The translations under genes and the position numbers were made by a program. Below, piece by piece: positions 51,280 through 63,999 of a DNA stretch of 64,000 nt; the first letter of the stretch is position 1, and each line of letters starts with the position of its first letter. The DNA comes from a virus. Below the pieces are notes generated by a model, which was given only the letters and a program-made list of their open reading frames with translations, was not told the DNA's origin and ran no database searches. The stretch covers positions 41,151-105,150 of the IMG/VR virus record IMGVR_UViG_3300027917_000024. One strand, given 5' to 3'.

Positions 51280-51603
51280 TTAACTTAGAAATGCTTTTAC
51301 AAATTCCCGAACGCCTCTAATGTTATACTTATTACTGTAAGTTATAACAGTATATTCTGTACCTCCAAATAAGAATATATAGTCAGTATTAATTATCGTT
51401 GCTGACCCCTCTATTTCTGTAGGTAACCAGCATTCAATTTGAGCCATTACTTCATTGCCCTCTTTATTTAGCACCATCTGAAATTCTTCGTTCCACCGAC
51501 AAGGAACATTACTGTATACGGTTGTTTTTGTAACTGTTCCGTAGCCATCCCTAGATACAGAATAGATGGTTGTAATTGTTTGTCTAAGAAGATCAGATAT
51601 CAT
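51280..51603 (-). CDS. head closure/stopper protein
   Basis: LRQTIT......DGYG.......VPCRW......V....G.EV pattern, in the neck module. Confidence 0.75.
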   Translation of the reverse strand: MISDLLRQTITTIYSVSRDGYGTVTKTTVYSNVPCRWNEEFQMVLNKEGNEVMAQIECWLPTEIEGSATIINTDYIFLFGGTEYTVITYSNKYNIRGVREFVKAFLS

Positions 51604-52390
51604 GTTTGCCTCTTATGTAATCTGAATATTTAAATGTATCTTGGATGGCTGATAATGTTTCATTTCGATAAAGTTCCTTAGGTCTCTTGGTACTTCTCAA
51701 TCCCGCCTTGACCCACAGACCTTTGTCGAGATGGACAACGTATGTATTTTTTAGCAGTAGTGTTCTTCCACCGCTATTATTATTTCGCTGTTCCCACTCT
51801 TCTTCATTATAATCCCATTCTACTTCTGGGTCAAAGTAATTTTTTGAATCGAACATATTTTCTTTGAGGGCTCGGCGTGATGCCCCCCAACAAAAACCTT
51901 GGGCACTGGTTATATGCCATACTAAATCTTGCGACTCATATTCTTCTTCTGGTACGTGCTGCAGTTCCTGATATGCCGAACTGCTGGCTACCGGTGCTAT
52001 AAAATCTCTGTTCTGTCTTTTTACCGCTTGAATGAAATATTCCCAGGATCTTGTAACTAATATATCCTGATTGAGCATTACTACTGCCTCACAATCGAAA
52101 TCATCAAGTGCAATTCGTATAATTTCATTCCAAGCGTGTGTAAGATCATTAATATCTGATTGAATAAAAAGCGAATTTACATGCTTGAATCGTTTCCGAA
52201 GTGCGATGTTCAATGCACGAAATCGATAATCCAGTGAGTCATTATCTCTTATGATGAGGACGTATTCTTCCTTCGTAAACATATCAATTCCAGAAATCAG
52301 ATCCATCAACAGGGCAAAAGGATCGGTATGTTCTGTTATCTCTTGCTTATCAATTACATCATTATGTGTAACAATGCCAATACCAATCAC
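51593..52390 (-). CDS. glycosyltransferase family 2-like (GT-A)
   Basis: IGIVTHN, IIRDNDS, THAWN and VVMLNQDILV motifs, plus YVVH. Confidence 0.8.
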   Translation of the reverse strand: MIGIGIVTHNDVIDKQEITEHTDPFALLMDLISGIDMFTKEEYVLIIRDNDSLDYRFRALNIALRKRFKHVNSLFIQSDINDLTHAWNEIIRIALDDFDCEAVVMLNQDILVTRSWEYFIQAVKRQNRDFIAPVASSSAYQELQHVPEEEYESQDLVWHITSAQGFCWGASRRALKENMFDSKNYFDPEVEWDYNEEEWEQRNNNSGGRTLLLKNTYVVHLDKGLWVKAGLRSTKRPKELYRNETLSAIQDTFKYSDYIRGKHDI

Positions 52391-52392
52391 GG

Positions 52393-53265
52393 TTATTTCC
52401 TATGTATAAGATCTACAGCCTTTTTCACATCTGTAAAAACGTCTTCATCTGTCGTTTCGATGTACCAATCTGTGTTCCTTGTTGGATCAATGGTTTTTCC
52501 CTTCAAGAAGTGCATATCAAACGGATAAATAATAAAAGCAGGAACGTGGGCTGTATATGCTAAAAATCCCAATCCGTATGGTCCAGAGAGTAAAAGATCT
52601 GAGTTTAGAAGTACCGCCATCTGTTCGGTCAGTGTCTTACCGGCATAGTTATGTAATGTGAAGTTGAATGGTTCCAATGCCTCAGTTATGGATCTTTCTA
52701 TCATTCCTGCTTTTGTCGAATGTACTACTGCTACCATATAAATATGAATTGGTTTGTTTACCTGTGCTTCTATTTTATCCAGGCAGTAAATCAGATCATA
52801 TTGCAAGGAAAATTCTGCATCATAATTCGTATCAAAAGCGTTAATGGCAATATTGATGGCATTTTTATCAATGAGTTTCTGTACGTCCTCAAACATTTCC
52901 TTGTTCACATTGATTTTATGCATATAATTTGTCGGTTGCCTGGGAAAAATCTTCTCTAAATGATGGTTCTTAAGATGCTCTATAATATCAATGTTAATAG
53001 TATTATTTACATATCGGTTCAAATCAATGTCATGTGGAAAATTAGCTACTGAGACGTATTCCTCATAAATAGGAGTAGGACCCAGATAAGCAATTCCATT
53101 GAATGAACTTATAATATCTTGTGAAAGAACGAATTTTTTTGCTTTTTTATCGTAAGCTGTATTTATTCCGATCAAGTCGAAATTACTCATGACTAATTTC
53201 CGATACAGCAAAATAAAGTTAGTAAAATCATCTCGTACCAGGCAGGTAAGCAGCCTCTTTTCCAT
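52393..53265 (-). CDS. GT9-like glycosyltransferase (GT-B, divergent)
   Basis: C-terminal GKTLTEQMAVLLNSDLLLSGPYGLGFLAYTAHVPAFIIY resembles the GT9 nucleotide-binding motif, with DSG/H replaced. Confidence 0.65.
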   Translation of the reverse strand: MEKRLLTCLVRDDFTNFILLYRKLVMSNFDLIGINTAYDKKAKKFVLSQDIISSFNGIAYLGPTPIYEEYVSVANFPHDIDLNRYVNNTINIDIIEHLKNHHLEKIFPRQPTNYMHKINVNKEMFEDVQKLIDKNAINIAINAFDTNYDAEFSLQYDLIYCLDKIEAQVNKPIHIYMVAVVHSTKAGMIERSITEALEPFNFTLHNYAGKTLTEQMAVLLNSDLLLSGPYGLGFLAYTAHVPAFIIYPFDMHFLKGKTIDPTRNTDWYIETTDEDVFTDVKKAVDLIHRK

Positions 53266-53274
53266 GGTTCCTCC

Positions 53275-54645
53275 TTACTCTACAAAATATACCTTCTTGT
53301 ATAGTTCTGTCATACTGTCACTCTCAATATTATAATTTTTAAGAACGAACTTTTTTCCCTCTTCTGCATATTCTGTTACTTTATCTATATTATTTATACA
53401 GAAATCTATCGCATCCATCCAATCATCAAGTTTTCCAGCCTGTTCCGTCTGTGTAGGAACTAGCATGCACGAGTTTTCCATTTCTTTTTTGATATTTGAG
53501 TACGGGTCGATATCGGAGCAGACAGGAAAAGCTGTTGTATAAAGATATTCCAAAAGTTTGATGGGGCTTTTTGATCGATTGAAGTCACATTCCACAAGAG
53601 GAGCAAGTCCAATATGCATCTGAAAGCTACTCAAAATCTGATGGTAATAGATGGGTTCAACAAATGGAAGGGAAATGATTCTATTAAAATAAGGAGATAG
53701 GTCCTTTGGTGGAGACTCGCCCATAAAAAGCATGCCTATATTTTCATACTTATCAAACAATTTTGGAATAAGCCCTCCAAAAACCTCTGTATCCTTCTGA
53801 TGAAATGATGATCCAATCCAAGCAATAATAATATCAGAGTCGTATTGTAATTTTTTTGGAAGATCAATATATTTATGATCAAATACACAGTTAGGGACGA
53901 CCATTACATCATCATTATGCTTTCTCAACACATCAGCAAGAGGTTCGGTTGTTGTTACTGCCCTATCACATTTCTTCAATATATTTGTTGTCACTCCAGT
54001 CCTCATTGGTGTCCAAAAGGGATATGCATGGTTCCAGTCCGGTAGATTCCATATATCATCATCAAGCTCAAACACCACTTTCTTACCACTAGCTTGTGCC
54101 TCTTCTACAACACCCTCAAGACTAGGATCTGCTGGACGTTGAATGACCAGAGTATCAGCTAGATTATATAAATGGATTCGATCTGTAGTGATGAGATGTG
54201 CGGGAATTCCCTTCCTGCATAAAGCAACACTCGGTAAAAACATTCTGTAATAACCGCATCCCCATTTTCGATGGTACGTCTAACCGTTGGATTTCTCCGC
54301 TCTCTAGACTCTCATAGTTTCCTATGAGCTCGGACCATATCATCATCCTAAAACATATAATAGGATGTCTCGCTTTTCGAACTCACTTGAGTTCTACACT
54401 TTACGTTGGTCTCTGAACCTGCCCCATATATAATCTGTACATGAAGGGGATTGGCTGCTGATCGTCCAATCTTTTGGTTTTTTAGCTGTCACGTTTAACA
54501 TTTCTGTTTCCGTTGTAGCACCAAAAGCTCTATAGGAGTTTCCAGCAATTAACGAGATTTGCATCTAGGTATTACTACCTAGAGGGACAAATGGTTTATC
54601 CGCCGCCATAAACGATACGGTTTTTACTTCTGGTTCTTGCTGCAT
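53275..54645 (-). CDS. GT4-like glycosyltransferase (GT-B), split by a group I intron (exon 1 54645-54598, exon 2 from about 54267)
   Basis: The spliced N-terminus MQQEPEVKTVSFMAAD-KWGCGYYRMFLP fits the DxxGCGxYR motif. Also ELDDD, TTTEPLA, WIGSS.H..D, IGLAPL...FNRSKS.IKLLEY. AGGAGAGG RBS before exon 1. Confidence 0.85.
54268..54597 (-). mobile_element. ORF-less group I intron (subgroup IA-like), about 330 nt
   Basis: P1 GGAU/GUCC with U.G at the 5' splice site. P2 with GUAA loop. P AAUUGCUGGAAA (54550-54539), Q GAUCAGCAGCC (54463-54453), R GUUCAGAGACCA (54418-54407), S GAUGAUAUGGUCC (54344-54332). P3 UCUCGUU/AGCGAGA, P8 AUCCUA/UAGGAU, P9 CUCAUAG-GAAA-CUAUGAG. Confidence 0.92.
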
Positions 54646-54845
54646 ACTTCCTCTCCTTTTTCTTTTTTGTTTGTCTTTTGCTTCTTTTGGCCATCCAATT
54701 TTCTCCGATTACCTCCTTTTTCGCCGCCTCGTTCTCTTCCTCCTTTTTTTAGTAGCTTTATTGGCTGGAATTGCTTGCTGGTACGTGTTGAACGGCCCTG
54801 CAATCCGTCTTCGCCTTCCAAATACAGATGGTTGGCTATAGACAT
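54624..54845 (-). CDS. small basic low-complexity protein
   Basis: K/R/G-rich 73-aa ORF filling the gap on the coding strand, weak RBS. Confidence 0.35.
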   Translation of the reverse strand: MSIANHLYLEGEDGLQGRSTRTSKQFQPIKLLKKGGRERGGEKGGNRRKLDGQKKQKTNKKEKGEEVCSKNQK

Positions 54846-54862
54846 AATAGCCCTTACGGGTC

Positions 54863-55048
54863 TTAACTATCATTGCTATCGTCTGCGAAATACAACTCGG
54901 GAGGTTTTACAAGGTTTCTTAAAGCTCGTATGTCCTCAAGAGTAGGTTCCTTAACATCCCACAATTTGATGATCTTGATAACACCAGGAATTCCATGCTT
55001 CATTAAAAGTTCTACAATTACTATGATAAACATCATCGTTGGATCCAT
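54863..55048 (-). CDS. small membrane protein (possible lysis accessory)
   Basis: Hydrophobic N-terminus MMFIIVIVELLM and AAGGAG RBS. Confidence 0.55.
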   Translation of the reverse strand: MDPTMMFIIVIVELLMKHGIPGVIKIIKLWDVKEPTLEDIRALRNLVKPPELYFADDSNDS

Positions 55049-56244: not shown

Positions 56245-59200
56245 TTATGTCACCTTTGCTAAATTTTTGATCTTGTACTGAGCCGTCATCCGAGCTGTTC
56301 TACCACTGTAAATATAAGTCACTTGTAATACAGCAATTTCATATCTATTATTCTGATTATAAATCAAGTTTGCATCAGATGTCAACTCTAAATATACTGC
56401 CGTTTGTATAGGTGTAATATTACCTTCCTGCCTGATATTTCCAGTAAATTTATCATAAAGTATGTAACTAGCCGAATCTGGTTTTATTGTGTTTCCATCC
56501 ATATCCTTGAATACTATCCGTACTTTAACTGTACCTCTTTCCGGTACAATTGCTCTGATGCCAGTTAGTTGTTCAGCTACTTCAAGAGAAATACTACTTG
56601 AGGAACAACTAGAACTAGAACTACAAGATTCCAACCAGTAAATTGTCAAGTCACCGATCAATACAATTCCAGCCAAACTAGCAGAAGATGAACTGGAAGA
56701 TGAACTGGATCTCGAACTGGAACTACGACTGGAACTCGAACTACTAGAACTGGAACGTGAGCTGGAACTGGAACTGGAACTAGAGAATGACGAAGAGGAA
56801 CTCGAACTCGAACTACTACTCGATCTAGAACTTGAGCTGCTACTACGACTGGAACTGGAACTACTACAGAGCCATTCCTCATCGCTTATAGATTTAATGA
56901 ATTTATCATCACCAATTACCGTATCAACTTGGTTATTATATTCAGTTTGGATCCACTCTATTGATCTGACTGTATTTGAAATCCGTACTTCATCTAGAAT
57001 TCCATTAAAATAACCAAATCCATTCCCCGATCTTCCGAAGCGCCACCTATCTGTAACTATTGATATTTCTTGTACAACTTCTATATCTTCCCTCACACCA
57101 TTTACGTGGATCGAAATTTGGCTATTATCTTCATGACACGCTGCAACATAGTACCAAGTATCTGGATCGGGACCGGTTTGGATAGTAGTTGTTCCAGTAG
57201 CTACTTCATCTGCCGGTTCTGTCGTTCTTATGTAATGTTCAAATTTACTATTTGCAGTAATTCTCAGCTGTGTTGAAAATACCGATCCTAGGTTATTTGT
57301 TCTAAGTAAGATACTAGTAGAAGTAATATCATTTGCTCTTACCCAAGCAGTAATTGTATATTCTGTTAGATCATCTGTATCTAGAACTTGGATCCAATCA
57401 TCAATACCATCGAATAGTTGCGCATAAGAGATTTTCCCATCAGTTCTAGACGGTGTTCTGCTAGCTACACCCCCACCACCAGTACCTGAAACCGCATTTC
57501 CAGACGAATCGGCATATTCCCCTGCTGTTCCGTTAGCTTGTTCATCTAAATGCCATACTCTAGTGAAATTGTTATCCCATGTGTCAGAAGTACCCGTTGG
57601 TATAGCTTGTGTTGGGTTTCCATAGAGAATCCAAATGATCGTCGCACTGTCAGCATGAACCTCCGGTACTTTCACCCATGCAACTAACTCAGCTTCTCCA
57701 GATCCTCCGTCCTTCTCAAATTTTTGTATCTCGTGATCAAGCTGTACACCTGTTCTGCTTGCAAATATGATATCATAACCATCATCTCTAGCATGATCAT
57801 ACAGGTTCGTATCGTTTTGTAGATGAATCAATACTGGGAAGTTAGTCAGATCCGCTTCAACGAGATCTTGATTGATATCGATTCGGCGGCGATAACACCA
57901 ACCTTCAAATTCCCAGCCTCCAGTTGAGTAGGAGCTCGAACTAGATGAACAAGAACTTGACTTGGAACTAGAACTGGAACTGGAACTTGATCGAGAGCTG
58001 GAACTGGAGCTGGAACTAGAACTAGAGCGTGAACTGGAACTAGAACTGGAACTCGAACTTGATTGAGAGCTAGAACTTGAACTTGATGATGACGAGCTCC
58101 TACTCGAACTGGAACGGGAAGAACTGGAACTTGACCGAGAAGAACTAGAACTGGATCGTGAAGAACTTGAAGAACTAGAACTACTACTTGATCGTGAACT
58201 AGAACTGGAACTTGATGATGACGAACTTCTACTTGAACTCGAACTCGAAGATGACGAGCTAGACCAAGAACTAGAACTAGAACTGGAAGAGGAACTTGAA
58301 CTTGATGATGAAGAACTAGATCGAGAACTGGAACTAGAACTGGAAGACGAACTTGAACTTGATGATGAAGAACTAGATCGAGAACTGGAACTGGAACTGG
58401 AAGACGAACTTGAACTTGATGATGAAGAACTAGATCGAGAACTGGAACTAGAACTAGAAGAGGAACTTGACCTCGAACTAGAGCTGGAACAGGAACTGCG
58501 TGAACTCCTACTCGAACTGGAACTGGATCGAGAAGAACTTGAACTTGAAGAAGATGAGCTAGATCGAGAACTACTGGAACTGGAAGTAGAGCTAGAACTA
58601 GAGCTAGAAGAAGATGAGCATGAACTAGAACTAAGACTGCTGCTCGATCTGGAACTGGAACTTGAAGATAATGATGAGGAACTAAAACTGCTACTTGATT
58701 CAGAACTAAAACTGGAACTAGAACTGCTACTCCATTGTATGTTTTCACAACCCTCATTCACTATAAAATTGTCAGCTCGCCATGTAAGAGCTGGATATGA
58801 AGCTCCAGCATTAGAGGCATCTAGCTGAATTTGCATCCTATTACTAGTTACAGTCCTTGTACTAATCGAATTCCATTGACTATTTCTCCAGTAGTAGGCA
58901 GTTACCGAACTTCCAGACCTTACGAAACGTAGCTTACCTGGATCGTCTATAGAACTATAACTGTCATTTAAACTACTCCACCCTGCTCCGCAACTCGTTT
59001 TATACCAAAAGAAATATCTCCAAAAACTGTTCAAGCGCCCATAATTTATATAGGCTATATTACAACCTAGATCAGTATCATATAAACCGAAACGGACATA
59101 GGACTGGTTGGCAGTAGACCAAGAAATCATGTCGAAATCGAGTTGTATATCAAAATTACCAACAAACATAAATTTCGATAGTACTCGATCTGTGCCAGTA

Positions 59201-62200
59201 CCTTCTCCTGATAGTTTAGTAAATTCAAGAGCATTACTTTGGATCTCAGGAGTACCCGCTGTTATCCACCACTTCGTAGAATCTGGAGGATCGCCATCAT
59301 CTCCTGTGAAATAATCATTAACAGGTGTACAGAAAGATCGAGAAGATGAACTTGAGCTAGAACTACTACGACTCGAACTGGAACTAGAACTACTACTCGA
59401 TCTCGAACTGGAACTGGAACTAAATGATGATGAGCTTCTACTTGAACTCGATCTGGAGCTCGAAGAAGAAGATCTAGAAGATGAGCTCGAACTGGAATAG
59501 GAGCTCGAACTCGAACTTGAGGAAGAAGATCTAGAAGATGAACTAGAGCTCGAACTAGAGCTGGATCGAGAACTGGAACTGGAGCTGGAACTGGAACTAG
59601 ATCGTGAACTGGAACTACTACTTGAACTGGAGCTGGATCGAGAACTGGAACTACTACTTGAACTTGAACTGGAACTCGATATGGAACTAGAAGAACTTGA
59701 ACTCCATTCTAGATTGTCGCAACCCTCATTAACCGTAAAATTATCTGCTCGCCATGTAGCACCAGGATAATTGGTTTCTCCATTTACTGTAGTGAGCTCA
59801 ATCTGGAAATCGCTATCTGTTGTATGTCCGTAAGTATCTACAAGTTCATTCCATTGACTATTTCTCCAGTAGTAGGCTTTTATGTAATTACCTGTTCTGG
59901 TAAGTCTTAATTTGCCTGTAGTGTCGCTACTAGGATAAATAGCATATGGTTTAGTTGTAAAACCAGACCCACAATTACTTCTTGAATGTGCTTGGTATCG
60001 GTAACCAGCACTATAATACCCATATTCCAATAGTTTGACGTTACAGCCCAGATCAGTCGCATAGGCTGATATTCGTAAGAACCATTGATGAGATGCGGGG
60101 CCGCTTGTAACTTCAAAATCAACCTGAATATCAAAATCACTTGTAAACACGAATTTTGAACGGACAGCATCAGTGGTTCCCAATGCCCCTGATGCTTGAG
60201 TCAATTCTAGAGCGTTGCTTTGTATGTCAGGACTGCCGGAAGTTATAAACCACTTACTAGAATCTGGGGGATCTCCGTTAGATCCTGTGAAGTCATCATC
60301 CACATCAGTACAAGCAGATTTGGATGAAGAACTAGAAGAGGAAGTTGATGAGTAACTTGAACTAGAAGAACTAGAAGTGAACACAGAAGCTGAACTGGAA
60401 CTAGAACTACTACTCGATCTTGAACTCGAACTTGATGATGACAATGATGAACTAGAACTTGATGACGATATTGATAAACTAGAACTAGAACTACTACTTA
60501 AACTTGAACTGCAGCTGGAACTAGAACTACTACTCGATCTGGAACTGGAACTTGAACTTGATGAAGAAGAACTACTACTTGATCTTGAACTGGAACTGGA
60601 ACTTGACGAAGAAGAACTGCTACTTGATCTGGAACTACTTGAAGAACTAGAACTGGATGAACTACTACTCGATCTTGAACTCGAACTAGAACTTATGCTA
60701 GAGCTTGATGAACTAGATGTAAATGCTGAACTGGAACTTAAACTGGAACTAGAACTTGATTGCGAACTAGAGCTAGAACTGGAACTAGATGAAGAGAAAC
60801 TACTACTTGATCTTGAGCTGGAACTGGAGCTAGATGAAGAAGAACTACTACTCGACCTAGAGCTGGAACTGGAACTAGATGATGAGGAACTACTACTCGA
60901 TCTTGAACTCGAACTAGAACTAGACGAGCTAGAACTACTACTCGATTTAGAACTTGAACTGGAACTAGAACTGGAAGAACTACTACTCGATTTAGAACTT
61001 GAACTGGAACTAGAACTGGAAGAACTACTACTCGATCTGGAGCTGGAACTGGAACTAGATGATGAAGAACTGCTACTTGATCTAGAACTGGAACTGGAAC
61101 TTGATGAGGAGGAACTACTGCTTGATCTAGAGGATGAAGAGCTAGAACTAGATTTGGAGCTAGAACTTGAGCTAGAGCTTGAGCTTGAACTAGACCGTGA
61201 ACTCGAACTCGAAGTGAGTGCAGAACTGGAACTGGAACTAGAACTGGAACTAGATCTTGAGCTAGAACTGGAACTGGAACTAGATGAAGAAGAACTACTA
61301 CTTGATCTCGAACTGGAACTAGAACTTGATGAACTAGAACTACTACTTGATGAACTAGAACTAGAACTAGATCTCGAACTGGAACTACTACTTGATCTGG
61401 AACTACTTGAAGAACTAGAACTGGATGAACTACTACTCGATCTGGAACTGGAACTGGAACTTGACGAAGAAGAACTACTACTTGATCTGGAACTACTTGA
61501 AGAACTAGAACTGGATGAACTACTACTTGACCTAAAGCTGGAACTGGAACTGCTACTTGAACACGAAGAGCTAGTAGCAACACTTGAACTGGAACTTGAT
61601 GAACTTGAACTAGAACTAGACTTTGAACTGGAACTGGAACTAGATGAAGAAGAACTACTACTTGATCTCGAACTGGAACTCGAACTTGATTGAGAGCTAG
61701 AACTTGAACTTGATGACGATGAACTATAAGAAGGACAACCAGCATAGAATCTAAAATTATCAAAATCAACAGTTACGGCTGGATCCGCATTCCAACCATC
61801 TACATAAAGACGTACTGTTCCATCTCCACTACCAATAGAGGCCCCACCTACCTCAAGCTCTACCCAATCACCTGTTCTATCTTCATCATAATAACCCCTA
61901 ACAGTACTTGAAGAACGTGTTAATCTAAGGGCACCAACTGTACCTGACCTAGAATCATTATCCTCTATCTCAGAACCACCATTAACATACCCACTTCGCC
62001 AATCAGGATTAGCGAGACTTTGCCACATACGCATCCGAAACAAATGCGTATCGTCTATAGTAAATTGAATTCCAGCCTGCCATCCAGAATTATCTGGTGT
62101 AACTACACCATCTATATCTACCCTTACATCAAAATCACCTGAAACTATTGCCAATAAATCGGCTCTTGGATTATTTTCTCCGCTTGGTTTTACAAATCTA

Positions 62201-63999
62201 GCTTTATTATTTTGTATCTCAATATAACCACTACCAAGACTTTCATCACTCCACTTAGTTTCATCTAAAGGATCTCCATTATCTCCTGTAAAATCATCAT
62301 CACACCAACAAGTACTAAATGAACTAGAAGAACGTGAACTGGAACTTGAGCTTCTGGAACTCGAACTACTTGAGGATCTAGAACTAGAACTTGTACTACT
62401 AGAAGAACTTGAAATAGATAACCCTTCACATCCCTCATTGAATGTAAAGTTATCAAAATCAACGGTTGGCTCTGGGTAATTACTCCAGGCATTGACAGAT
62501 AAAGCTATTCTACCATCACCATCGCCTATATCCCGCCCATTAGGTCCATCTAACTGTGTCCAACCACTTTTTGCACCTTCATCATAAAATACCTTTACCG
62601 TACTTCCACTACGAGTAATCCGCAACCAACCATTATCTAGAGTACGGCTGTCATTATCAGGATATTGAACACCGTCACCATTTCTATATCCAGCTTGCCA
62701 TTTTTTATTATTGAATTCCGCCCACAAAGAAATCCAGTACCAATGATTGCTATCAATATCAAAGCGTAGATATGCTTGCCAACCACTTGCATTAGGAGCA
62801 ACTTGAGCATCTACCTGAATCTCTACATCAAAATCACCTGTAATCCACGGTAGTAGTATAGCTCCTGCTGAATTTCCTGCTCCTCCACTTCCATAAATAC
62901 CACGTAACTTATTCGATTGAATTTCAGCACTACCATTACCCGCACTAATATTTATCCATTTAGTTGGGTCTGGAGGATCTCCATTATCTCCTGTAAAATC
63001 GTCATTGTAACCGCAAGAAAAACTTGAAGATGAGGAACTACTACTCGATCTTGAACTGGAACTTGAACTTAAACTGGAACTTGAACTGGAACTTGAATTT
63101 GAAGAAGAAGAGCTGCTACTTGACCGAGAACTACTAGAACTGGAACTTGAAGATCGAGAGCTAGAACTGGATGAGCTAGATGAAGATGGTCCCTCAGCCG
63201 TACCACCACCAGTAGCTACAGCAAACCAGTCGTAGTATGTATAACAGCTATGATCGTATGCAGAGACCCCTACCCAGCCACTTGAATGTGTTGAGTCTGT
63301 TTCCTCTATTTGCCATCCTGGTTCGTCACCTAAACTTCCTGTCCAACATTTTGCTTTAATATTATCATCAACAACTCGAAATCTTCCCCAATACCAAGTA
63401 TCCTTATCAATTGTTAGGGAATAGCTACCAACTGTAGATGCAGTACCCGAACTCCATTCGTGTACTCGTATTATGTGACTGGTACCATACAGTGTTAGCA
63501 TATAACCTGATATACTATCACCAGAACCAGAACCTCTTATAACAACTCTTGTATTATAATTTGCCTCTGTAGACTGTCGTGCTCTGAATAAAATTTCTGC
63601 GTCTGTTTGATCTCCAACATCATCCCACGACATACCTCTTCTACTGGCAATGGCATCAACATATGCCTCACCAGACATACCGCCATAATCACCATAATCA
63701 TTTGCACCTAACCAATATAGCCCCGGTGCTGTATTCCATCTCGAAGTCCAATCATTTGTTAAAAGATTTTCGTTGTTAGAATATTTACTAAAATCAGTTG
63801 AGTAGTGACCAACAGATGCTGAAGAACTGGAATGTGAGCTAGAACTACTGGAAGATCTAGAGCTGGAGCTGGAACTAGAACTGACAACTAATCCTGAACT
63901 GGAACTAGAACTGGACGAGGAAGAACTGCTACTTGATCTGGAACTGCTACTAGAACTTGAAGAAGAAGAGCTAGAACTAGATCTTGAACTCGAACTAGA
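56245..63999 (-). CDS. giant poly-serine-linked multi-lectin-domain virion protein (5' end outside window, >=2584 aa)
   Basis: The frame is open from 63999 with no stop before the ATG at 63678. Four DDFTG repeats, a DUF2341-like plus LamG/ConA-like region (YRRRIDI..LTNFPVL...WVKVP...YGNP; VWHLDE; FDGIDDWI; FNGILDEVRIS...WIQTEYNNQ) and eight poly-Ser tracts. Confidence 0.85.
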   Translation of the reverse strand, partial: SSSSSRSSSSSSSSSSSSSSRSSSSSSSSSSSSSSGLVVSSSSSSSSRSSSSSSSHSSSSASVGHYSTDFSKYSNNENLLTNDWTSRWNTAPGLYWLGANDYGDYGGMSGEAYVDAIASRRGMSWDDVGDQTDAEILFRARQSTEANYNTRVVIRGSGSGDSISGYMLTLYGTSHIIRVHEWSSGTASTVGSYSLTIDKDTWYWGRFRVVDDNIKAKCWTGSLGDEPGWQIEETDSTHSSGWVGVSAYDHSCYTYYDWFAVATGGGTAEGPSSSSSSSSSSRSSSSSSSSSRSSSSSSSSNSSSSSSSSLSSSSSSRSSSSSSSSSFSCGYNDDFTGDNGDPPDPTKWINISAGNGSAEIQSNKLRGIYGSGGAGNSAGAILLPWITGDFDVEIQVDAQVAPNASGWQAYLRFDIDSNHWYWISLWAEFNNKKWQAGYRNGDGVQYPDNDSRTLDNGWLRITRSGSTVKVFYDEGAKSGWTQLDGPNGRDIGDGDGRIALSVNAWSNYPEPTVDFDNFTFNEGCEGLSISSSSSSTSSSSRSSSSSSSRSSSSSSRSSSSFSTCWCDDDFTGDNGDPLDETKWSDESLGSGYIEIQNNKARFVKPSGENNPRADLLAIVSGDFDVRVDIDGVVTPDNSGWQAGIQFTIDDTHLFRMRMWQSLANPDWRSGYVNGGSEIEDNDSRSGTVGALRLTRSSSTVRGYYDEDRTGDWVELEVGGASIGSGDGTVRLYVDGWNADPAVTVDFDNFRFYAGCPSYSSSSSSSSSSSQSSSSSSSRSSSSSSSSSSSSSSKSSSSSSSSSSSSSVATSSSCSSSSSSSSFRSSSSSSSSSSSSSSRSSSSSSSSSSSSSSRSSSSSSSSSSSSSSRSSSSSSSRSSSSSSSSSSSSSSSSSSSSSRSSSSSSSSSSSSSSSSRSSSSSSSSSSSALTSSSSSRSSSSSSSSSSSSSKSSSSSSSSRSSSSSSSSSSSSSSRSSSSSSSSSSSSSSRSSSSSSSSSSSSSSKSSSSSSSSSSSSSSKSSSSSSSSSSSSSSRSSSSSSSSSSSSSSRSSSSSSSSSSSSSSRSSSSFSSSSSSSSSSSQSSSSSSLSSSSAFTSSSSSSSISSSSSSRSSSSSSSSSSSSSSRSSSSSSSSSSSSSSRSSSSSSSSSSSSSSRSSSSSSSSCSSSLSSSSSSSLSISSSSSSSSLSSSSSSSRSSSSSSSSSASVFTSSSSSSSYSSTSSSSSSSKSACTDVDDDFTGSNGDPPDSSKWFITSGSPDIQSNALELTQASGALGTTDAVRSKFVFTSDFDIQVDFEVTSGPASHQWFLRISAYATDLGCNVKLLEYGYYSAGYRYQAHSRSNCGSGFTTKPYAIYPSSDTTGKLRLTRTGNYIKAYYWRNSQWNELVDTYGHTTDSDFQIELTTVNGETNYPGATWRADNFTVNEGCDNLEWSSSSSSSISSSSSSSSSSSSSRSSSSSSSSSSSRSSSSSSSSSSSRSSSSSSSSSSSRSSSSSSSSSSYSSSSSSSRSSSSSSRSSSSRSSSSFSSSSSSRSSSSSSSSSSRSSSSSSSSSRSFCTPVNDYFTGDDGDPPDSTKWWITAGTPEIQSNALEFTKLSGEGTGTDRVLSKFMFVGNFDIQLDFDMISWSTANQSYVRFGLYDTDLGCNIAYINYGRLNSFWRYFFWYKTSCGAGWSSLNDSYSSIDDPGKLRFVRSGSSVTAYYWRNSQWNSISTRTVTSNRMQIQLDASNAGASYPALTWRADNFIVNEGCENIQWSSSSSSSFSSESSSSFSSSSLSSSSSSRSSSSLSSSSCSSSSSSSSSSTSSSSSSRSSSSSSSSSSSRSSSSSSRSSRSSCSSSSSRSSSSSSSSSSSRSSSSSSSSSSSSSSSSSSRSSSSSSSSSSSSSSSSSSRSSSSSSSSSSSSSSSSSSWSSSSSSSSSSSRSSSSSSSSSSSRSSSSSSSSSSSRSSSSSSRSSSSSSRSSSSRSSSSSSSSSSSQSSSSSSSSSSSRSSSSSSSSSSSRSSSSSSSSSKSSSCSSSSSSYSTGGWEFEGWCYRRRIDINQDLVEADLTNFPVLIHLQNDTNLYDHARDDGYDIIFASRTGVQLDHEIQKFEKDGGSGEAELVAWVKVPEVHADSATIIWILYGNPTQAIPTGTSDTWDNNFTRVWHLDEQANGTAGEYADSSGNAVSGTGGGGVASRTPSRTDGKISYAQLFDGIDDWIQVLDTDDLTEYTITAWVRANDITSTSILLRTNNLGSVFSTQLRITANSKFEHYIRTTEPADEVATGTTTIQTGPDPDTWYYVAACHEDNSQISIHVNGVREDIEVVQEISIVTDRWRFGRSGNGFGYFNGILDEVRISNTVRSIEWIQTEYNNQVDTVIGDDKFIKSISDEEWLCSSSSSSRSSSSSSRSSSSSSSSSSSSFSSSSSSSSSRSSSSSSSSSRSSSSRSSSSSSSSSASLAGIVLIGDLTIYWLESCSSSSSCSSSSISLEVAEQLTGIRAIVPERGTVKVRIVFKDMDGNTIKPDSASYILYDKFTGNIRQEGNITPIQTAVYLELTSDANLIYNQNNRYEIAVLQVTYIYSGRTARMTAQYKIKNLAKVT

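Follow-up and report, generated by a model that had tools for sequence, protein, structure and literature searches.

The stretch of DNA analysed here, hereafter the window, comprises 64 kb of a 105-kb linear IMG/VR virus record and belongs to an uncultured phage of marine sediment. Its sequence is also present in marine-sediment metagenome runs, and a megablast search against GenBank phages gave no match. Two pieces of the window, 54520-54718 and 54629-54803, were matched by short contigs from other studies, namely a further one of marine sediment (0 differences) and a soil metagenome of 2025 (1 difference), so that this phage or a near-identical one may also occur elsewhere; the matching shares are too small for naming a habitat. 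On the minus strand of the window lies a glycosyltransferase (GT) gene that is split by a group I intron (Table 1). Its first exon is preceded by a GGAG ribosome-binding site, is read in frame up to U54598 and, in the protein alignment, is identical over the residues VKTVSFMAAD to P0002, the closest uninterrupted homologue. Just upstream, a very basic 73-aa ORF (54624-54845, minus strand) overlaps exon 1 in another frame; the relative P0039, of 402 aa, has the homologue of this ORF joined in frame to its glycosyltransferase. The interrupted gene is grouped with two more genes of putative sugar-handling function, and a largely poly-Ser protein of 2477 aa is encoded next to them (neighbourhood at 51593-53265 and 56245-63678, minus strand).

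The Pfam test of the GT protein as a GT-B / GT4-like glycosyltransferase gave a Glyco_transf_4 match below the cut-off (14.2 bits against 28.5); more distant homologues, called glycosyltransferases in some sources, carry PF00534, PF13692 and PF13524. A protein search recovered 16 close homologues at 55-88 % identity, 11 of which are uninterrupted and 345-364 aa long. P0002, at 88 % identity, has 346 aa and no intron, and across the position of the junction it aligns as VKTVSFMAAD-KW-GCGYYRM. The pattern of an Asp, two residues and GCG(Y/F/H)YR is present in 15/15 full-length homologues, three distant ones included (the Asp is found in all 15 that reach its position, four calls with truncated N-termini falling short of it). 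Where the DNA of intron-less alleles could be read, it has GAT^AAA, GAT^AAG or GAT^CAT (^ marks the splice position), that is, at most three A's at the junction. Across 302 ungapped columns, no otherwise invariant position of exon 2 carries a private change, and the distance of exon 2 to every outgroup is that of the intron-less sister P0002. Judged by such comparisons, the gene does not look to be decaying: relaxed constraint is not seen, and both exons as well as the ribozyme look fully maintained. A cluster drawn at 90 % identity unites the gene with two uninterrupted members and with P0037 and P0038 (322 aa, about 90 % identical, from other assemblies), both of which were called from the same internal Met as the window gene. 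These calls could reflect a shared frame break; by themselves they prove nothing, because the callers also picked internal starts for genes with standard sister introns (P0014-P0017).

Table 1. Features of the intron-split glycosyltransferase gene, in window positions
Feature	Position	Strand	Description
Exon 1 of GT	54598..54645	-	Encodes MQQEPEVKTVSFMAAD (translation); ends at U54598
P1 and internal guide	54585..54601	-	Exon GGAU/GUCC; intron AAA/UUU; loop CCA
Group I intron	54269..54597	-	329 nt up to G54269; IA-like; from RF00028 and sister alignment
P7 5' strand	54407..54413	-	G[A]GACCA; pairs with 54337-54332; read from the sequence
P7 3' strand	54332..54337	-	UGGUCC; within motif GGATGATGATATRGTCCGA
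J7/9 (GAG)	54329..54331	-	Provides P9.0 pairs G54331-C54270 and A54330-U54271
P9 hairpin	54311..54328	-	7 bp, GAAA loop; from RF00028 match and folding
P9.1 hairpin	54278..54309	-	Outer GUCUA/UAGAC, inner GGA-GAAA-UCC
3' tail	54269..54277	-	GUACCAUCG; last nucleotide G54269
Extra A	54268	-	Fourth in the A run 54268-54265, which is three long in relatives and intron-less alleles
P10, exon-2 side	54262..54267	-	AAAUGG; perfect pairing with guide CCAUUU (54589-54594)
Exon 2 of GT	53275..54267	-	KWGCGYYRMFLPS...; 330 codons and stop
Out-of-frame reading after G54269 ligation	54164..54268	-	KMGMRLL...NPFI, then stop

A check with the Rfam covariance model RF00028, suggested by an earlier sequence-only reading of the locus, returned a match at 54607-54311 (minus strand) over the full model (1-253), with 101.6 bits, E 3.5e-25 and a gathering score of 50, and by inspection the intron is IA-like. 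There is no ORF inside it. Scanning JGI metagenome contigs with the GT protein family yielded two distinct orthologous genes, at about 56 % protein identity, that are interrupted at the same codon by a group I intron: L059 (Ga0307379_10009766) and L058 (Ga0307377_10014067; L058 = L057). These sister introns score 95 and 85.7 bits with RF00028, both passing and both below the window intron, and the mean column identity among the three, flanking exon included, is 79 %. All share the site GAU^AAA, P1, P2, a P7.2-like hairpin, P7, P9 and P9.1. In the window intron, the 5' splice site reads GAU^AAACC; G54601, G54600, A54599 and U54598 pair with G54588, U54587, C54586 and C54585, such that U54598.G54588 lies within the GGAU/GUCC helix with A-U pairs on both flanks, and this P1 is identical in L058 and L059. 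P2 and P3 to P8 were also recognised by inspection, as was a hairpin GAACUC-AAGU-GAGUUC (about 54394-54379) between P7 and P3' that is conserved in both sisters. P7 is absent from the structure line of RF00028, and the guanosine-binding pair, G54411-C54333 with A54412 bulged, was therefore taken from the sequence. Folding of the 3' part predicts P9 and P9.1 in all three introns; relative to both sisters P9 shows a compensatory change from C-G to U-A, and the inner stem of P9.1 has changed from A-U to U-A in L059. A 53-nt extension in the P5 region (54478-54530, minus strand), itself without an ORF, is missing from L058 and L059 (alignment columns 131-183).

The 3' junction presents a conflict of one base. 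The intron end and the start of exon 2 read C54270 and G54269, then A54268-A54265, then U54264, G54263 and G54262 (CAUCG-AAAA-UGG). P9.0 consists of U54271-A54330 and C54270-G54331, with G54269 following directly, whereas a P9.0 register one base later leaves G54269 without a partner. P10, on the other hand, has 6 bp and -3.7 kcal/mol in the in-frame register and 3 bp and +2.5 kcal/mol in the omega-G register, so that P9.0 marks G54269 and the 6-bp P10 marks the bond after A54268, two sites that are one base apart. Exons joined after G54269 would read GAUAAAAUGG and enter the 54164-54346 frame, with a stop at 54164 and a product of 50 aa; joined after A54268, they would read GAUAAAUGG and encode AAD-KWGCGYYR within a 346-aa protein, the length of P0002. 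Since uninterrupted homologues read AAD-KW-GCGYYR, the corresponding mRNA junction must be GAU^AAAUGG, 1 base past G54269. Much of this anatomy had been described by the sequence-only reading, and its 5' splice site after GAU with a U.G pair in P1, its P9.0 and G-C guanosine pair in P7, the frameshift to 54164 upon splicing at G54269, and the in-frame junction after A54268 with a perfect P10 are all confirmed. A search of proteins found no shorter contig-end ORFs reading through the junction, and the 60-aa out-of-frame ORF is absent from the protein collection searched. As a separate matter, CCAU of the tail and AUGG of exon 2 can form a 4-bp hairpin (54264-54273, minus strand) whose loop contains G54269 and A54268-54266, and the tail repeats, as ACCAU, the ACCAU of the guide. 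A different local hairpin is possible across the 3' splice site of L059; none is possible in L058.

In both sister introns a terminal G precedes only three A's, and the frame is kept: L059 ends GACGUAACACAUUG^AAAUGG and L058 ends ...CAUUG^AAAUUC. Unlike the window intron, they have a tail of 11 nt rather than 9 nt, have a P10 of about 4 bp and are without the P5 extension. Aligned most economically, the tails (GUA-C-CAUCG in the window, GUAACACAUUG in the sisters) place G54269 opposite the omega-G of the sisters and leave one surplus A; an alternative produced by MAFFT, in which A54268 falls under the sisters' G, costs many more substitutions. Because the sisters, at the same codon, end in G and three A's, G54269 is taken as the homologue of their omega-G. 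Their J7/9 is GAA, and UU stands before omega-G, the UU pairing against GA in P9.0. A terminal A is therefore not common to the related introns compared, both distinct sisters ending in G.

A motif search with the J8/7-P7 core GGATGATGATATRGTCCGA extended the comparison to at least 114 IMG/VR contigs (loci L063-L176). The 3' regions of this wider family show the same layout of P9, P9.1 and a short tail ending ...TAACAnnTG. About 100 phage introns with this core have tails with ...UG at the end. When J7/9 was tallied against the dinucleotide before the presumed omega, GAA went with UU, GAU with AU or UU, and GAG with CU; the tally, heuristic in that a motif served to place omega, fits P9.0 pairing. 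Several contigs (L089, L105, L131 and L170) hold two introns with this core within about 0.4-5 kb of each other. Patterns specific to the sub-lineage of the window intron found nothing in the viral contigs or genome contigs searched, and distant blastn gave only core-motif matches to unrelated phage introns; in cultured phages, such matches fall under annotations of tape measure, DNA polymerase and RNA polymerase. Phage group IA introns with a P7.1/P7.2 region (T4 td / nrdB type) have the same core motifs, of which GGAUGAUGAUAURGUCCGA is common to at least 114 IMG/VR contigs, and the same G-C pocket with a bulged A; like the window intron they have P9, then P9.1, then a short tail with G at its end. 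The difference is that, in the window intron, the G of the family pattern is one base out of frame.

Whether the fourth A is real was approached through the Logan contigs of two runs, made with a different assembler. They matched 53900-54900 with 0 differences and 0 gaps, four A's included, at word depths of 7.4 and 5.6; the two runs represent one sample, perhaps the source of the record, and so test the assembly and not an independent phage, and contigs drop rare variants. The pieces 54520-54718 and 54629-54803 from other studies end short of the 3' junction. ORFs of 150 aa or more cover 89 % of the window, among them unbroken ones of 2477, 2778 and 3936 aa, and contain 829 homopolymer runs of at least 4 with no other break. 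Because so many runs sit in intact ORFs, indel error must be rare in this assembly. An error at the fourth A is unlikely, and a minor three-A variant is conceivable.

The interpretation favoured here, with about an even chance of being right, is a standard omega-G intron next to a real and recent +1 A, such that the main spliced mRNA is out of frame and the allele is null or leaky; from the observed sequence, homology and pairings we infer which bond the ribozyme joins. The last intron nucleotide would be G54269 of an ordinary phage group IA intron, and the +1 change, probably real, would lie in the AAA Lys codon at the start of exon 2, although which A was added is not tellable. Following GTP attack after U54598, G54269 would enter the G-C guanosine pocket of P7, held by its two P9.0 pairs, and the exons would be joined as GAU-AAAAUGG, giving an out-of-frame mRNA that ends after 50 codons and a GT allele that is off, or leaky at best. 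Any inactivation must be recent, because the exons and the ribozyme show no decay, and a single mutation separates the present sequence from a fully standard ancestor, CAUCG^AAAUGG, in which omega-G, P9.0, a 6-bp P10 and the reading frame agree. An inactivating mutation was among the options listed by the sequence-only reading and now looks the most likely of them. The omega-A intron that it also proposed is not supported by comparison of the homologous 3' ends, with sisters that end in G and not A and then have AAA in frame, a standard P9.0 at G54269 that has no counterpart in the register one base on, and an unchanged G-C pair in P7. The favoured interpretation draws further support from the three A's of the intron-less alleles with GAT^AAA, the roughly 100 same-core phage introns with tails ...UG, and the four A's reproduced in the contigs of both runs. 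Against an omega-G intron with an extra A stands the coincidence that it needs: within 64 kb there is a single apparent frameshift, and it lies precisely at a splice junction, in a gene that has 57 homopolymer runs of at least 3. Such a coincidence is unlikely in one window; when many windows are scanned, a few chance cases are expected. The GT gene, moreover, looks maintained, with an exon 1 like that of P0002, the intron outscores its sisters with RF00028, P10 is better in the other register (6 against 3 bp, the sisters having about 4 bp), and spliced group I introns that end in A exist in nature (PMC8146996; by its title, also Raghavan et al. 2007).

That the exons are instead joined after A54268, with the P10 of AAAUGG and CCAUUU setting the site, A54268 at omega and a functional GT as the outcome, is considered unlikely; such ligation might serve as the chief route or as a minor one supplying enough in-frame mRNA. 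It is similarly doubtful that the 6-bp P10 overrides the adjacent P9.0-supported G, be it through omega-A use or through two competing 3' sites that set the amount of GT, and omega-A use, if real, would be a single one-base step from a standard G-ending ancestor. Ligation after A54268 is the only junction that gives AAD-KW-GCGYYR, with the spacing of 15/15 full-length homologues and a 346-aa product as in P0002; its P10 is perfect and stronger than in the sister introns, neither gene nor ribozyme shows decay, and a chance frameshift exactly on the junction is unlikely. It would have to succeed, however, against a G with proper P9.0 geometry directly upstream, which should be a strong competitor for the G-C pocket, and that pocket is unchanged and not A-U. 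In that register G54269 has no P9.0 partner, and as the sisters end in G, an A end was not inherited in the lineage. In other group I introns an A at omega is strongly disfavoured, and in work on the Tetrahymena and Anabaena introns, replacing omega-G by A makes the ligation of exons orders of magnitude slower. There are nonetheless recorded A-ending introns. The hexacoral mitochondrial intron ND5-717 (PMC8146996, PMC6545197) ends in A, and RNA reads back the exact ligation of its exons (PMC8146996); the 23S rRNA intron Cbu.L1917 of Coxiella burnetii, according to the title of the report describing it, 'lacks the canonical omegaG' (Raghavan et al. 2007, J Bacteriol 189:6572). As far as that title goes in the case of Cbu.L1917, both resemble the window locus in having a function- or frame-restoring junction after A. 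In ND5-717, however, the terminal A is described as a standing feature of the intron, whereas the closest relatives of the window intron end in G; the window intron further differs from A-ending introns in having a P9.0-supported G directly before the A, and it is known here from DNA.

Other ways of restoring the frame carry less weight. It is improbable that the fourth A is an artefact of reads or consensus, or a low-depth variant, with a true junction CAUCG^AAAUGG. With one A fewer, the reading frame would be restored together with omega-G, P9.0 and an in-register P10 of 6 bp, and the word depths are low, the evidence consisting of contigs from one sample that is maybe the record's own source; yet two runs and another assembly program gave the same four A's without a gap, and no other break occurs among the 829 runs, both of which also weaken the homopolymer error contemplated by the sequence-only reading. 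Its further idea of a splice-site switch turning the GT on or off finds no support, a run of 3-4 A's being too short for frequent slippage, and transcriptional slippage or phase variation was rejected likewise on the shortness of the run. Splicing at G54269 followed by a +1 slip of the ribosome on A-AAA-A, which would restore the frame in a fraction of translations, is very improbable. The spliced GAU AAA AUG G would permit perfect AAA-to-AAA re-pairing by the Lys tRNA before UGG, and the resulting protein would be exactly AAD-KW-GCG; but a stimulator is not visible, the next 0-frame codon is AUG, neither a stop nor rare, and no homologue uses such a site. Unstimulated +1 ribosomal slippage usually remains well below 1 %.

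Slightly less credible again is a 5' splice site shifted upstream by one base (GCGGA^U) and combined with G54269, which would give GCG GAA AAA UGG and hence AAE-KWGCG in frame, with a standard 3' end. There is experimental precedent in the group B IStron ribozyme BcISt1, a bacterial IA2-like intron that splices one base before U (PMC4227781), and an equivalent parse of this one-base boundary offset at the window locus would restore the frame. The offset of BcISt1 lies at its 5' end, where the U.G pair is beside the loop, whereas the U.G of the window intron is flanked by A-U pairs within a continuous P1 helix; the sisters, with the same P1, must cut after U to keep the frame, and the product would replace the Asp that is present in 15/15 homologues reaching this position. 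The least probable alternative is another in-frame G, namely G54262 (AAD-GCGYYR), which the sequence-only reading had offered as a weaker choice, G54277 (AAD-YHRKWGCG) or G54280 (AAD-TYHRKWGCG). The GT frame follows each of them without a stop, and to that extent G54262, like the other two, holds up as in frame. As splice sites, all three have a P9.0 or P10 poorer than in the two main registers, G54277 and G54280 lie in or beside the P9.1 stem, and the three were rejected for losing two residues, or gaining three or four, relative to the fixed D-xx-GCG spacing of 15/15 homologues. Of the other frames of exon 1, which were also discarded, one stops at a UAA across the splice site and the other has a stop and no later start.

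If the extra A is a fresh frameshift, the locus holds an ordinary phage intron in a GT gene that carries a dead or leaky allele, a glycosyltransferase being an unusual yet unsurprising host for a group I intron. If the exons are joined after A, it would be a natural one-step mutant in which an otherwise standard ribozyme chooses between the pocket with P9.0 and P10, and it would show a route from G-ending to A-ending introns. A ready set of constructs for testing junction choice is at hand in the window intron, the sisters that end in G and the alleles without an intron.
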